A stretch of 64,000 nucleotides of DNA from Escherichia coli. GTDB taxonomy: Bacteria > Pseudomonadota > Gammaproteobacteria > Enterobacterales > Enterobacteriaceae. Each line of letters starts with the position of its first letter. Positions within the stretch are counted from its first letter, which is position 1. The stretch lies in NCBI RefSeq assembly GCF_001677475.2, contig NZ_CP015229.1, one strand, 5' to 3'. Made by a program: the position numbers and the translations under genes. Under the pieces are notes generated by a model. The model was not told where the DNA came from, ran no database searches, and saw only the letters and a list, made by a program, of their open reading frames with translations. Positions 11,101 through 39,320 of the stretch are shown here, piece after piece.

Positions 11101-12149
11101 CACCGAATCCGACACCAGAGCCGACGCCAGAGCCAACGCCTGTTCCTGACCAGACTCTGGATAATGACCTGCGCCCGGAGGCTGGTGGTTACATCGCGAA
11201 CCTTGCGGCAGCCAACACAATGTTAACCTCCCGACTGCATGAACGTCTGGGGAGCACATACTATACCGATCTGGTCACGGGTGAGCAGAAACAAACCACC
11301 ATGTGGATGCGTCATGAAGGGGGTCACAACAAATGGCGTGATGCAAGTGGCCAGTTGAAAACCCAAAGCAATCGCTATGTTCTGCAACTGGGGGGCGATA
11401 TCGCGCAGTGGAGTATAAGTGGCAACGACCGCTGGCATCTGGGGGTCATGGCTGGTTACGGTAACAGTGACAGCAAGACTATCTCATCGCGCACCGGTTA
11501 TCGAACTAAAGCAAGCGTGAATGGTTACAGCACGGGGTTATATGCGACCTGGTATGCGGATGATGAGTCACATAACGGGGCGTATCTCGACAGTTGGGCG
11601 CAGTACAGCTGGTTTGATAACACAGTGAAAGGGGATGACTTACAAAGTGAATCCTATAAATCAAAAGGATTTACCGCTTCACTGGAAGCTGGATACAAAC
11701 ACAAATTAGCTGAATTTAATGGCAGCCAGGGAACGCGTAATGAATGGTATGTTCAGCCGCAAGCACAGGTTACCTGGATGGGAGTCAAAGCCGATAAGCA
11801 CCGCGAAAGCAACGGAACCCTCGTTCATAGCAACGGTGATGGCAATGTTCAAACCCGACTTGGCGTAAAAACCTGGCTGAATAGCCACCATAAAATGGAT
11901 GACGGTAAATCCCGCGAGTTCCAGCCGTTTGTAGAAGTGAACTGGCTACATAACAGTAAGGATTTCAGCATCAGTATGGATGGCGTGTCCGTCACTCAGG
12001 ATGGAGCCCGAAATATTGCTGAGATAAAAACCGGGGTGGAAGGACAGCTAAATGCCAACCTGAATGTCTGGGGGAATGTGGGCGTTCAGGTTGCCGATAG
12101 GGGATATAATGACACCTCTGCAATGGTTGGCATTAAGTGGCAATTCTGA
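8160..12149 (+). CDS. ehaA: AIDA-I/EhaA-type autotransporter adhesin
   Basis: Extended autotransporter signal peptide (MNKIYRLKWNRSRNCW...), long repetitive beta-helix-like passenger, Pro-rich linker PEPDPMPNPEPNPTPNPTPEPTPEPTPVP, C-terminal beta-barrel ending ...GIKWQF; sits next to betT as ehaA does in O157 genomes (symbol from memory). Confidence 0.75.
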   Translation: MNKIYRLKWNRSRNCWSVCSELGSRVKGKKSRAVLISAISLYSSLVFADDVIVNQDKTIDFGKENQSIDYRITVTDNANLVINATDTSRPRLTLASGGGLDITGGKVTINGPLNFLLKGTGFLNVSNAGSELYADDLYESNSGMRHDRGYFNVSNGGKIHVKGTSRLTYLQGNVSGEGSQVNSKTFFMGVYGSYGGNQYLSVNNGGEVNASEKISLGYYDQVSDTTLAVSEGGKISAPTISLSTNSELALGAQEGSAAKAAGIIDAEKIEFVWAKTSDKKITLNHTDKNATISADIVSGSEGLGYINALNGTTYLTGDNSAFSGKVKIEQNGALGITQNIGTAEITNRGKLHLKAEDSMTFANKISGNGTISIDSGTVELTGNNYAFYGYIDVASDAVAVISEDKNIGRAELDVDGKLQINANKDWVFDNDLEGRGIVEINMGNHEFSFDEFAYTDWFQGSLAFQNTTFNLEKNAEFLQRGGITAGQGSQVTVGKGAHSISSLGFSGGTVDFGALAAGAQMTEGTVNISKTLDLRGEGVIQVSDSDVVRSVSRDIDSALSLTEVDDGNSTIKLVDAQGAEVLGDAGNLQLQDKNGQILSSSAQRDIQQNGQKAAVGTYDYRLTSGVNNDGLYIGYGLTQLDLHATDSDALVLSSNGKSENAADLSAKITGSGDLAFSSQKGQTVSLSNKDNDYTGVTDLRSGTLLLNNDNVLGHTHELRLAAETELDMNGYSQIVGTLNGSADSLLSLNGGSLTVTNGGTSTGSLTGSGELNIQGGTLDIAGDNSNLTANVNIANSANVLVSHAQGLGSANVENNGTLALNNSAEKRAAASVNYTLGGNLTNNGTLMTGMSGQQAGNVLVVKGNYHGNNGQLVMNTVLNGDDSVTDKLVVEGDTSGTTAVTVNNAGGTGAKTLNGIELIHVDGKSEGEFVQAGRIVAGAYDYTLARGQGANSGNWYLTSGSDSPELQPEPDPMPNPEPNPTPNPTPEPTPEPTPVPDQTLDNDLRPEAGGYIANLAAANTMLTSRLHERLGSTYYTDLVTGEQKQTTMWMRHEGGHNKWRDASGQLKTQSNRYVLQLGGDIAQWSISGNDRWHLGVMAGYGNSDSKTISSRTGYRTKASVNGYSTGLYATWYADDESHNGAYLDSWAQYSWFDNTVKGDDLQSESYKSKGFTASLEAGYKHKLAEFNGSQGTRNEWYVQPQAQVTWMGVKADKHRESNGTLVHSNGDGNVQTRLGVKTWLNSHHKMDDGKSREFQPFVEVNWLHNSKDFSISMDGVSVTQDGARNIAEIKTGVEGQLNANLNVWGNVGVQVADRGYNDTSAMVGIKWQF

Positions 12150-26694: not shown

Positions 26695-27647
26695 AAAAAT
26701 CGTGGCGTAATAACGTTGAGTTTTACTTGATCGGCCTGCTGGTACTAACTGTTGCCGCCTTCAGCATTACTATGCCGGAGATTTTCTGGTCGATAAGTAA
26801 TTTCCAGTCCGTCGCTTCGCAAATGCCCGTGCTGGGCATTCTGGCGTTGGCTATGGCGGTGACCATGCTTTGCGGTGGCATTAACTTGTCAATTATTGCC
26901 ACTGCTAACGCCTGTTCACTGGTGATGGCGTGGGTGGCGACTCAGTATCCACCGGGTATTGCTACGGTTGTCGCTACGCTGCTGGCGGGCGCTGGCGCGG
27001 CGGTGATAATCGGTTTATGTAACGGCGTATTGATTGCTGGTATTCGAGTGTCGCCAATTCTTGCAACGCTTGGGATGATGACATTGCTCAAAGGGGTAAA
27101 TATTCTGGTGACAGGCGGTAGCGCCATTGCCAATTATCCCTCATGGGTGCTGTGGTTGAATCATGCACAGTGGTTCGGTATTCCGCTACCGATGTGGTTG
27201 TTTACCGCAGTGGCGCTGGGGCTGTGGATATTGCTGGAGAAAACGCCGCTCGGTAAAGCCATTTATCTGATTGGTTCTAACGAACGAGCAACACTTTACT
27301 CCGGTATTAACACTCGTCGGGTGCTGATATGGGTGTATGTCATTTCCGCCTTGCTTTGTGCGGTAGCGGCATTTTTGATGATGTCGAAACTCAACTCGGC
27401 TAAGGCCTCTTATGGCGAATCGTACTTGCTGGTGTCAATCCTCGCGGCAGTACTCGGCGGGGTTAATCCGGACGGCGGCAGCGGGCGGATAATTGGTATG
27501 GTGCTGGCGCTGTTTCTTCTGCAAATTATTGAAAGCGGCTTCAATATTCTCGGTATAAGCCCCTACCTGACGATGGCCTTATGGGGAACGTTGCTGCTCT
27601 GTTTCATTCAGGCTCGCGGCATGTTGGGGCTGGATCGGGTGGTTTAA
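26691..27647 (+). CDS. ABC transporter permease
   Basis: Polytopic membrane ORF; ATG after a GGAG SD overlaps the upstream stop (ATGA coupling). Confidence 0.8.
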   Translation: MKKSWRNNVEFYLIGLLVLTVAAFSITMPEIFWSISNFQSVASQMPVLGILALAMAVTMLCGGINLSIIATANACSLVMAWVATQYPPGIATVVATLLAGAGAAVIIGLCNGVLIAGIRVSPILATLGMMTLLKGVNILVTGGSAIANYPSWVLWLNHAQWFGIPLPMWLFTAVALGLWILLEKTPLGKAIYLIGSNERATLYSGINTRRVLIWVYVISALLCAVAAFLMMSKLNSAKASYGESYLLVSILAAVLGGVNPDGGSGRIIGMVLALFLLQIIESGFNILGISPYLTMALWGTLLLCFIQARGMLGLDRVV

Positions 27648-27733
27648 ATATTGGCTATATTCAATGGACGCGTTTTGCCGCGATGACATATCAGGCATCG
27701 CCAAATACACATAGCTAATCAGGAGTAAACACA

Positions 27734-28783
27734 ATGAAGATCAAAGCTGTTGGTGCATATTCCGCTAAACAACCACTTGAACCGATGGATATCACCCGGC
27801 GTGAACCGGGACCGCATGATGTCAAAATCGAAATCGCTTACTGTGGCGTCTGCCATTCCGATATCCACCAGGTCCGTTCCGAGTGGGCGGGGACGGTTTA
27901 TCCCTGCGTGCCGGGCCATGAAATTGTAGGGCGCGTGGTAGCTGTTGGTGATCAGGTAGAAAAATATGCGCCGGGCGATCTGGTTGGTGTCGGCTGCATT
28001 GTCGATAGTTGTAAACATTGCGAAGAGTGTGAAGACGGGCTGGAAAACTACTGTGATCACATGACCGGCACCTATAACTCGCCGACGCCGGACGAACCGG
28101 GCCATACTCTGGGCGGCTACTCACAACAGATCGTCGTTCATGAGCGATATGTTCTGCGTATTCGTCACCCGCAAGAGCAGCTGGCGGCGGTGGCTCCTTT
28201 GTTGTGTGCAGGGATCACCACATACTCGCCGCTACGTCACTGGCAGGCCGGGCCGGGTAAAAAAGTGGGCGTGGTCGGCATCGGCGGTCTGGGACATATG
28301 GGGATTAAGCTGGCCCACGCGATGGGGGCGCATGTGGTGGCATTTACCACTTCTGAGGCAAAACGCGAAGCGGCAAAAGCCCTGGGGGCCGATGAAGTTG
28401 TTAACTCACGCAATGCCGATGAGATGGCGGCTCATCTCAAGAGTTTCGATTTCATTTTGAATACAGTAGCTGCGCCACATAATCTCGACGATTTTACCAC
28501 CTTGCTGAAGCGTGATGGCACCATGACGCTGGTTGGTGCGCCTGCGACACCGCATAAATCACCGGAAGTTTTCAACCTGATCATGAAACGCCGTGCGATA
28601 GCCGGTTCTATGATTGGCGGCATTCCAGAAACACAGGAGATGCTCGATTTTTGCGCCGAACATGGCATCGTGGCTGATATAGAGATGATTCGGGTCGATC
28701 AAATTAATGAAGCCTATGAGCGAATGCTGCGTGGTGATGTGAAATATCGTTTTGTTATCGATAATCGCACACTAACAGACTGA
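27734..28783 (+). CDS. yahK: Zn-dependent NADPH aldehyde reductase / alcohol dehydrogenase
   Basis: 349 aa; zinc-ADH motifs (GVCHSDIH, GHEIVG) and Rossmann GxGxxG (GIGGLGHMG). Confidence 0.85.
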   Translation: MKIKAVGAYSAKQPLEPMDITRREPGPHDVKIEIAYCGVCHSDIHQVRSEWAGTVYPCVPGHEIVGRVVAVGDQVEKYAPGDLVGVGCIVDSCKHCEECEDGLENYCDHMTGTYNSPTPDEPGHTLGGYSQQIVVHERYVLRIRHPQEQLAAVAPLLCAGITTYSPLRHWQAGPGKKVGVVGIGGLGHMGIKLAHAMGAHVVAFTTSEAKREAAKALGADEVVNSRNADEMAAHLKSFDFILNTVAAPHNLDDFTTLLKRDGTMTLVGAPATPHKSPEVFNLIMKRRAIAGSMIGGIPETQEMLDFCAEHGIVADIEMIRVDQINEAYERMLRGDVKYRFVIDNRTLTD

Positions 28784-28818
28784 AAAAATTAATAAATATC
28801 CTGTGGTTTAACATATTA

Positions 28819-28860
28819 ATTTCGCTCTCCACTTAACTTTTTAGTTAAGGAGAGCGAAAT
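28819..28860. repeat. near-perfect 19-bp-arm inverted repeat downstream of yahK (terminator-like hairpin)
   Basis: ATTTCGCTCTCCACTTAACT / AGTTAAGGAGAGCGAAAT arms around a TTTT loop; no flanking U-run. Confidence 0.45.
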
Positions 28861-29025
28861 AATATCAAAGTAGCAGTAAAACCTATAACGTAAATTCAAA
28901 TTGTTAAATTAACTCCCTCCAGGACACAATACTTCACACGTTAGTTATGAGCGATTTCTGATAGTGCTTGGTTTAATCAGAGCTTTATTATCTGCGACGT
29001 TTATTTTTATTTAAGAGAGATCGCG

Positions 29026-29841
29026 ATGATATCATTAAAAGCTCCGCACAATAATTTGATGCCATATACGCAACAAAGCATACTTAATACGGTTAAAAAC
29101 AATCAGTTACCAGAGGATATCAAAAGCTCCCTGGTTTCCTGTGTCGATATATTCAAGGTTTTGATTAAACAATATTATGATTATCCTTATGATTGTCGTG
29201 ATGATTTAGTCGATGATGACAAACTCATTCATCTCATGGCTGCCGTGCGAGACTGTGAGTGGTCAGACGATAACGCACTCACCATAAATGTGCAGTTTAA
29301 TGATTTCCCTGGGTTTTATGACTGGATGGATTACCCTGATCACCCGGTTAAGTTTGTTTTTCGCATACTTGAAAATCAAAAAGGGACAGTTTGGGTATAT
29401 GACCAGGATGATGCGTTTCTTGATATTAAAGCAAATGTGCAGGCTGGACGCTTTACCGGGCTTAAGAAATTAGTGCAGTTTATCGATTCAGTGCGAACAG
29501 ATTGCAAATGTATTCTTCTTGAACACCATATGCCTTTGCTGAGACTTTTCCCTAAAGGGAAAGAGTGTATGCATGTGGAAAAATGGCTTCGCGAAATGTC
29601 GTCTATTCCGGAGACCGACGCACCCATTAAGCAGGCGCTTGCGCATGGATTATTATTACACTTAAAAAATATCTACCCTGTTTTTCCTGAATCACTGGTG
29701 AGGTTATTGCTCTCTGTTCTGGACGTAAAAACATACAGAGATGATGCGCGATTAAATCAATGGATATCTAATAGAGTGCAGGAATTAGGTGACAGATATT
29801 ATCCTGTAAATAAGCACGTTAAAATCCGCTACACTCTTTAG
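29026..29841 (+). CDS. yahL: hypothetical protein
   Basis: 271-aa ORF in an AT-rich region; backbone position. Confidence 0.7.
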   Translation: MISLKAPHNNLMPYTQQSILNTVKNNQLPEDIKSSLVSCVDIFKVLIKQYYDYPYDCRDDLVDDDKLIHLMAAVRDCEWSDDNALTINVQFNDFPGFYDWMDYPDHPVKFVFRILENQKGTVWVYDQDDAFLDIKANVQAGRFTGLKKLVQFIDSVRTDCKCILLEHHMPLLRLFPKGKECMHVEKWLREMSSIPETDAPIKQALAHGLLLHLKNIYPVFPESLVRLLLSVLDVKTYRDDARLNQWISNRVQELGDRYYPVNKHVKIRYTL

Positions 29842-30252
29842 TTCAGAAAGGGTTCCACCTGTAAGGCGTTATTACACCAGAGAGTGAATCGCAAAGCAGG
29901 TAATCATTTCATCTGTATATCCGTATGCCAAATGGCATTCCACCGCCTTTTTCGCCGATATTTTGTTGTGATCGGCGACGCTTCGCTTAAAAAAGCACCA
30001 GCAGTGGTTTCGCAGCTATGCGGTGTATAAAAAATGATCTCATGCAGATGTTTTGTGAATGTGTGGGTTGACATTCATATGAAAAAAATCATAATTCCAT
30101 CATGTTTGTGTGGGGTCTTTTCTGTACCTTACGCATCGCACTCAAGCCTGACAGAAAATATGCTGTAAGGCTCATATCAAAACCGCCATTAGCTCATCAG
30201 GAAGAGCAGACGACAACCAGGATTGTTGTATGGTACGGGGTTCGAGGCCTCG

Positions 30253-30498
30253 ATGGCGGTCCAACTTTTCAAAACTCTTCTGAATCAGATCCCCTTATTA
30301 TCATCCCTGCAAAGTGGAACATTGCCATTGTTTGGCTATTCAGGACGGGTCAGACCAATGAAAAAAGCCCACACAGGGGAGAGTGGGCTGAAATGGGAAG
30401 CTAAAGACTCAAGTAAACTTATCGGAAATAAGGACCACGCATTACGGGGGCTATCATCGCCGATGGCCGGGATTCGGCAAATCAGGTTGATTACGTAG
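30253..30498 (+). CDS. yahM: small hypothetical protein
   Basis: 81-aa ORF from the second in-frame ATG of the 30223 track ORF; size matches the K-12 gene; weak SD. Confidence 0.4.
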   Translation: MAVQLFKTLLNQIPLLSSLQSGTLPLFGYSGRVRPMKKAHTGESGLKWEAKDSSKLIGNKDHALRGLSSPMAGIRQIRLIT

Positions 30499-39049: not shown

Positions 39050-39320
39050 AGTATTGTCGGATGCGTCGCGCGCCGCATCCGACACCATGCGCAGATGCCT
39101 GATGCGACGCTGGCGCGTCTTATCATGCCTACAGGTCTGAACCGTAGGTCGGATAAGGCGCTCGCGCCGCATCCGACACCGTGCGCAGATGCCTGATGCG
39201 ACGCTGGCGCGTCTTATCATGCCTACAAGTCTGAACCGTAGGTCGGATAAGGCGCTCGCGCCGCATCCGACACCGTGCGCAGATGCCTGATGCGACGCTG
39301 GCGCGTCTTATCATGCCTAC
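39050..39320. repeat. REP/BIME array (three tandem ~119-bp units)
   Basis: Three near-identical copies of ...GCCGCATCCGACACCGTGCGCAGATGCCTGATGCGACGCTGGCGCGTCTTATCATGCCTAC... after prpE. Confidence 0.75.

Follow-up and report, generated by a model that had tools for sequence, protein, structure and literature searches.

The yahK-yahL spacer and its palindrome

The locus described here lies in a stretch of Escherichia coli DNA of 64,000 nt (hereafter the window, whose coordinates are used throughout), in which yahK, coding for an NADPH-dependent aldehyde reductase, occupies positions 27734-28783 of the plus strand, as given by the list of open reading frames and by the RefSeq annotation of matching E. 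coli records. The gene ends with a TGA codon at 28781-28783 and is followed by an AT-rich 3' UTR spacer of 35 nt (28784-28818, plus strand; 17% GC), after which a long palindrome begins, at the distance from the stop codon that an earlier note on this DNA had given. The palindrome (28819-28860) reads ATTTCGCTCTCC-AC-TTAACT / TTTT / AGTTAAGGAGAGCGAAAT and, from its sequence, forms 18 Watson-Crick pairs between a left (5') arm of 20 nt (28819-28838, plus strand), in which A28831 and C28832 are bulged out, and a right (3') arm of 18 nt (28843-28860, plus strand); sequence and fold both place the TTTT loop at 28839-28842 (plus strand). The palindrome reported in the earlier note is thus real, but its arms of ~19 bp and 1-nt bulge were a miscount, one G having been counted twice. 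Upon folding, the last 6 nt of the spacer (28813-28818) can pair with 28861-28866 and so lengthen the stem by weak A-U pairs. No U-run is found 3' of the palindrome, where the sequence is AATAATATCAAAG, and a promoter/terminator scan returned no terminator-like site at the palindrome and nothing else of relevance, in agreement with what the earlier note had said of a missing U-run.

On the 3' side, the hairpin is followed by an unstructured spacer (28861-28940, plus strand) that is C-rich and G-poor (18 C and 8 G, with 9 YC dimers, and a C:G ratio of 2.25 as against 0.81 in yahK) and that is a candidate rut-like site for the loading of Rho and for termination. The downstream gene, yahL (29026-29841, plus strand; from the list of open reading frames and genome comparison), is AT-rich (39% GC), and the hairpin sits between yahK, with 53% GC, and an AT-rich segment that is variably present in the species. 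Indeed, yahL is present or absent across E. coli: about 1,080 complete genomes, of the B2 type, are without an 835-bp segment that corresponds to positions 29020-29854 of the window and starts 6 nt 5' of the yahL ATG, and these genomes often have a frameshifted yahM. The B2-type genomes without yahL retain the hairpin beside yahK, which ties the hairpin to yahK rather than to the gene that follows.

Other features of the neighborhood were recorded along the way. Several genomes carry, between yahJ and yahK, a pseudogene fragment of 75 nt, annotated in RefSeq as "hypothetical protein, missing N-terminus" (locus L001, 2874-2948; ~90-160 nt 5' of yahK, or window ~27570-27650). Two strains have IS1 junctions in the region of the palindrome, at sites corresponding to ~28770 of the window (locus L003, 4098-4795) and to ~28837 (locus L088, 2292-3000). 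In strain 21964, IS1 links the 3' end of yahK with lacY; in SCAID WND1-2022, the end of IS1 adjoins the loop of the palindrome, and the left arm, yahK and the genes upstream are deleted. IS1-mediated deletions seem to be recurrent in this AT-rich spacer. Further downstream, 81 nt (30183-30263, plus strand; 3' end ...ATGGCGGTCCA) that overlap the annotated start of yahM are called by ARAGORN as a gene resembling tRNA-Ser(GGA), for which there is no RefSeq annotation and no Rfam tRNA match at E <= 1. A 3' end mapped by Term-seq in K-12, at 345390 on the plus strand (window ~30240), lies within the T-arm of this sequence, which is also found in the B2 genomes without yahL and could be either the relic of a tRNA-like gene or a site where an island once integrated. 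On the opposite strand of the palindrome itself, an antisense reading frame of 19 codons (ATG at 28816, minus strand), with a Shine-Dalgarno sequence in the hairpin, was considered and rejected, as an indel in an A-run breaks the frame in B2 genomes.

The palindrome is more than a chance feature. When the window was scanned for hairpins, with Watson-Crick pairs only, one bulge permitted and a loop of 3-8 nt, the palindrome was the longest found (18 bp, against 12 bp for the runner-up) and the only one of at least 14 bp, and the longest hairpin in 30 block-wise, composition-preserving shuffles was of 13 bp. Moreover, the RNA of the plus strand from 28784 to 28900 folds at -28.5 kcal/mol, compared to a mean of -12.1 kcal/mol for shuffled sequences (z-score -5.7; none of 200 shuffles was equally good), with the core stem contributing -22.3 kcal/mol in the form found in the window. 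Being AT-rich, the palindrome does not rank with the 50-nt stretches of highest absolute stability, which are REP elements and coding hairpins rich in GC. First in that ranking within the window is a hairpin at 11065-11114 (minus strand; -30.8 kcal/mol), a 22-bp, G-U-rich stem in which units like GGATTCGG / GGGTTTGG are repeated. REP/BIME-type palindromes, ordinary multi-copy elements similar to GCCGGATGCGGCG, cluster on both strands at 39055-39300.

Conservation and left-arm variants in E. coli

Among the 5,426 complete genomes of E. coli, 5,088 (~94%) matched a query of 67 nt containing the palindrome, the median number of places per genome being one; conservation across strains, a check that the earlier note had proposed, is therefore borne out. 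The 67-nt block around the palindrome is equally invariant, however, and this conservation is not specific to the stem.

Outside E. coli the picture is different. The palindrome is absent near the close relatives of YahK listed from other genera, where the gene neighborhoods differ, and the loci of a 91%-identical relative and of Salmonella bongori are both non-syntenic and without the palindrome. Among the matches listed, identity to YahK outside E. coli does not exceed 91%, and relatives at 78-88% identity are listed from Enterobacter, Betaproteobacteria, Pseudomonas and Alphaproteobacteria, also in non-syntenic contexts (loci L004-L083 and L084-L086); comparison of these sequences suggests horizontal movement of yahK. 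In Enterobacter sp. BIGb0383, the corresponding place after the yahK relative is taken by a hairpin-plus-U terminator of canonical form, and some structure at the 3' end of the message is thus to be expected there.

Within E. coli, five haplotypes account for 5,063 of the about 5,090 matching records. They differ in the left arm only, the sole polymorphic part of the palindrome, and share one and the same right arm. The most common, the K-12 type (left arm ACTTCGCTCTCCACTTAACT), is found in 3,947 records and has a core stem of -21.3 kcal/mol; it is followed by the Nissle/SF-166 type (ACTTCGCTCCACTTAACT; 547 records, -19.6 kcal/mol), by a perfect palindrome of 18 bp (ATTTCGCTCTCCTTAACT; 404 records, -27.7 kcal/mol), by the AVS0536 type (ACTTCGCTCTCCTTAACT; 133 records, -26.7 kcal/mol) and by the type found in the window (ATTTCGCTCTCCACTTAACT; 32 records, -22.3 kcal/mol). 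All five thus keep a strong stem, with a core of -19.6 to -27.7 kcal/mol. Three of the other haplotypes can be reached from the K-12 type in a single step each, namely a C-to-T change, the loss of AC, or the loss of CT in a CTCT repeat. Compensatory double changes are not found among the five haplotypes, so that covariation speaks neither for nor against the structure.

Two of these three kinds of change bring the palindrome nearer to perfection. Moreover, all four combinations of the base at arm position 2 with the presence or absence of AC occur, and T at position 2 is found on both K-12-like and B2-like flanks, from which it follows that at least one of the changes is recurrent, or else that a very short recombination tract was exchanged. 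Quasi-palindromes of the kind described by Lovett (QP sites) are hotspots of template-switch mutation. As at QP sites, the palindrome is imperfect and has variants that are more perfect (by loss of the AC bulge, or by C to T at position 2); unlike at those sites, the evidence at yahK is a population pattern only. The pattern is the one that quasi-palindrome template switching would be expected to leave, provided that the changes ran toward the more perfect forms.

RNA 3' ends and a candidate Rho-dependent region in K-12

The mapping of 3' ends, by Term-seq or otherwise, was another check proposed in the earlier note, and published data for MG1655 provide it. A 3' end is reported at 344013 on the plus strand for cells grown in LB to an OD of 2.0 (mean of 1,132 reads), and another at 344011 (plus strand) in the sheet for M63 (745 reads), whereas none was called at the palindrome at an OD of 0.4 in LB (Adams et al., 2021, eLife; PMC7815308, Supplementary file 1). 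The flanking sequences printed for both entries contain the palindrome. In the printed 61-mers it is base 51 that represents the 3' end, as calibrated on the entries for thrL, and positions were transferred by alignment of the K-12 sequence (reference U00096.3) to the window. The K-12 RNAs end ...GAGAGCGAAAUAAU (344013) and ...GAGAGCGAAAUA (344011), and the homologous sites in the window are 28863 and 28861 (28861-28863, plus strand), that is, +3 and +1 from the right arm. It should be kept in mind that the transcript data are from K-12, the stem of which differs by one base from that of the window, and that the counts at the palindrome are low, about 740-1,130 reads. Both ends were classed as "orphan" and entered as located 5' of yahL, at a distance of 163-165 nt (Adams et al., 2021; PMC7815308, Supplementary file 3), a label that reflects position only.

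The same study lists regions of Rho-dependent termination, obtained by DirectRNA-seq with and without bicyclomycin, one of which peaks at 344049 on the plus strand (Rho score 3.6, p = 1.8e-5; Adams et al., 2021; PMC7815308, Supplementary file 2). This position is equivalent to 28899 in the window, 39 nt past the stem and 36 nt past the distal 3' end. Coverage there is low, with 32 and 24 reads upstream and downstream in untreated cells and 83 and 225 reads in the presence of bicyclomycin (PMC7815308). Since, in treated cells, the signal downstream exceeds the signal upstream, part of it could come from transcription de-repressed in or near the AT-rich yahL, and not from read-through out of yahK.

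The properties of the hairpin agree with those of a described class of transcript ends. In E. coli, transcripts terminated by Rho have precise steady-state 3' ends located directly after stable stem-loops, which have no uridines after them, shield the RNA against PNPase and RNase II, and have rut sites just downstream (Dar and Sorek, 2018; PMC6061677). At yahK, the stem-loop of the 3' UTR is stable (18 bp, -22.3 kcal/mol, z-score -5.7), no uridine-rich tract comes after the stem (the sequence is AAUAAUAUCAAAG), a steady-state 3' end lies directly after it in the K-12 data, and the RNA downstream is unstructured, C-rich and G-poor, and rut-like (C:G 2.25). The bicyclomycin-sensitive signal recorded downstream is of low coverage and ambiguous. 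In contrast with the members of the class, the yahK stem is unusually long, nearly perfect (18 bp, and perfect in 404 genomes) and AT-rich.

We conclude that the palindrome is probably a terminal, protective RNA stem-loop in the 3' UTR of the yahK mRNA, a message that Rho would terminate. RNA polymerase would pass through the hairpin, because there is no U-tract for release; Rho would then load just 3' of it, where the RNA is unstructured, C-rich and G-poor, and would end transcription in the AT-rich spacer between yahK and yahL. The heterogeneous ends so produced would be trimmed by the 3'-to-5' exonucleases PNPase and RNase II back to the 18-bp stem, which would block them and leave a defined and stabilized 3' end 1-3 nt beyond the stem. 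We infer this order of events, the trimming by exonucleases and any stabilizing effect on the yahK mRNA. The earlier note had offered an RNA stability element as one of two options, and the K-12 3' ends, the Rho termination region listed downstream and the retention of the palindrome in ~94% of the genomes all support it. Unprocessed read-through of a palindrome that is not conserved, the outcome that the note held to speak against its proposal, is not what the data show.

Alternative readings and significance

It could be argued that the hairpin has no selected function. The quasi-palindrome would have arisen by mutation, for instance through template-switch "correction", and would persist owing to the low divergence within the species, and the Term-seq ends would be incidental to a stem that happens to block exonucleases. 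Several observations agree with this: covariation is absent, the palindrome was encountered in E. coli alone, a species of low overall divergence, the 67-nt block around it is just as invariant, the perfecting changes recur (T at position 2 on two flanks, and each base at position 2 both with and without AC), and the Term-seq counts are low. On the other hand, the five haplotypes all have stems at least as stable as -19.6 kcal/mol in spite of three independent changes in the left arm, and ~94% of genomes, those that have lost yahL included, retain the hairpin. Moreover, in a transcribed RNA the hairpin sets the 3' end whether selected or not, so that this explanation disputes selection and not the mechanism. 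Altogether, we regard it as unlikely. We are equally reserved about a reading that joins both views, in which the palindrome would be a quasi-palindrome mutation hotspot and its haplotypes would tune, lineage by lineage, the stability of the yahK mRNA or the read-through into a silenced yahL-yahM. By template switching, the left arm would be "perfected" time and again to match the invariant right arm, either by loss of the AC bulge or by C to T at arm position 2 on two unrelated flanks. We mention this as a tentative idea, and a rather improbable one.

That the hairpin is a non-canonical Rho-independent terminator, which releases polymerase directly without a U-tract and possibly with the help of NusA or NusG, we consider very unlikely. 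The location of a long and stable stem 35 nt after the stop codon, the precise 3' ends adjoining it and the A/U-rich sequence 3' of the stem would all suit such a terminator, and the hairpin shares with canonical intrinsic terminators its position soon after a stop codon, where it marks the end of a transcript. Intrinsic terminators of E. coli release the RNA ~7-9 nt after the stem, inside the U-tract. In contrast, there is no T run after the yahK hairpin, the scan did not find a terminator-like site, the ends lie at +1 and +3 and not at about +7 to +9, and a Rho-sensitive region is recorded just downstream. The literature on yahK in connection with terminators or Term-seq contained nothing specific that we could find, and yahK does not appear in the supplements of TERMITe and SMRT-Cappable-seq. 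We also considered a site for RNase III, with cleavage within a duplex of ~20 bp or longer, and rejected it, the mapped 3' ends being outside the stem; a literature search returned no paper tying yahK to RNase III.

The palindrome could, alternatively, act as DNA, whether as an operator through which a dimeric regulator controls yahL or yahK, as a cruciform site, or as a boundary for the silencing of the AT-rich yahL-yahM segment by H-NS. Its near-perfect symmetry, complete in 404 genomes, and its place in an AT-rich spacer 5' of yahL would suit such a site. Known operators, however, are far shorter, about half of the 40 bp of this palindrome. In addition, the left half-site bears 2-nt indels that shift its register while the stability of the hairpin is kept, the palindrome persists where yahL is deleted, no second copy of the half-site is found within the 64-kb window and no further copies in the genome, and no report of binding was found in the literature. 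A peak for a sigma factor in genomic SELEX, labeled "yahK > yahL > yahM", does not correspond to the palindrome, as it is at 343660, inside yahL and away from it. For its length and for the indels in its left half-site, the palindrome gives no support to the other option of the earlier note, a protein-binding site, and we hold a role at the DNA level to be highly improbable.

It is scarcely credible, lastly, that the palindrome was left behind by a mobile element or belongs to a family of intergenic repeats (REP/BIME, the end of a MITE, an IS200/IS605-type hairpin or an integration site). The location at the junction between yahK, at 53% GC, and an AT-rich variable segment, as well as the IS1 junctions nearby in two strains, could be taken to favor it. 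However, repeat families such as REP/BIME, ERIC and MITE or IS ends are recognized by multiple copies or by an adjacent transposase gene, and here neither is found, the palindrome being present at a median of one place per E. coli genome. A phage collection had no match to it, the matches in plasmids are F' plasmids or mis-filed records of chromosome size that carry the same lac-proximal locus, and a search of Rfam with positions 28000-30000 at E <= 10 returned chance matches only, far under the gathering scores. In metagenomes, a scan with the loop and right arm retrieved 120 stretches, and in all those that could be examined the sequence lies directly 3' of yahK. The palindrome does share with the REP/BIME elements that stabilize mRNA 3' ends an intergenic location after an upstream gene and the capacity to block 3'-to-5' exonucleases; unlike those elements, which are multi-copy and conform to a consensus, it is single-copy and of unrelated sequence.

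As a protective stem-loop at the end of a Rho-terminated message, the yahK hairpin would be a routine, if unannotated, example of a well-described class, and the general understanding of this class is unchanged by it. For the locus itself, an unannotated structure gains a probable mechanism, and two "orphan" Term-seq ends, which were already in a published table but had been left uninterpreted, can be re-read as marking where the yahK message ends. Moreover, the five natural variants of the stem form a series that could be used for measuring how the strength of a stem relates to the protection of an RNA 3' end.
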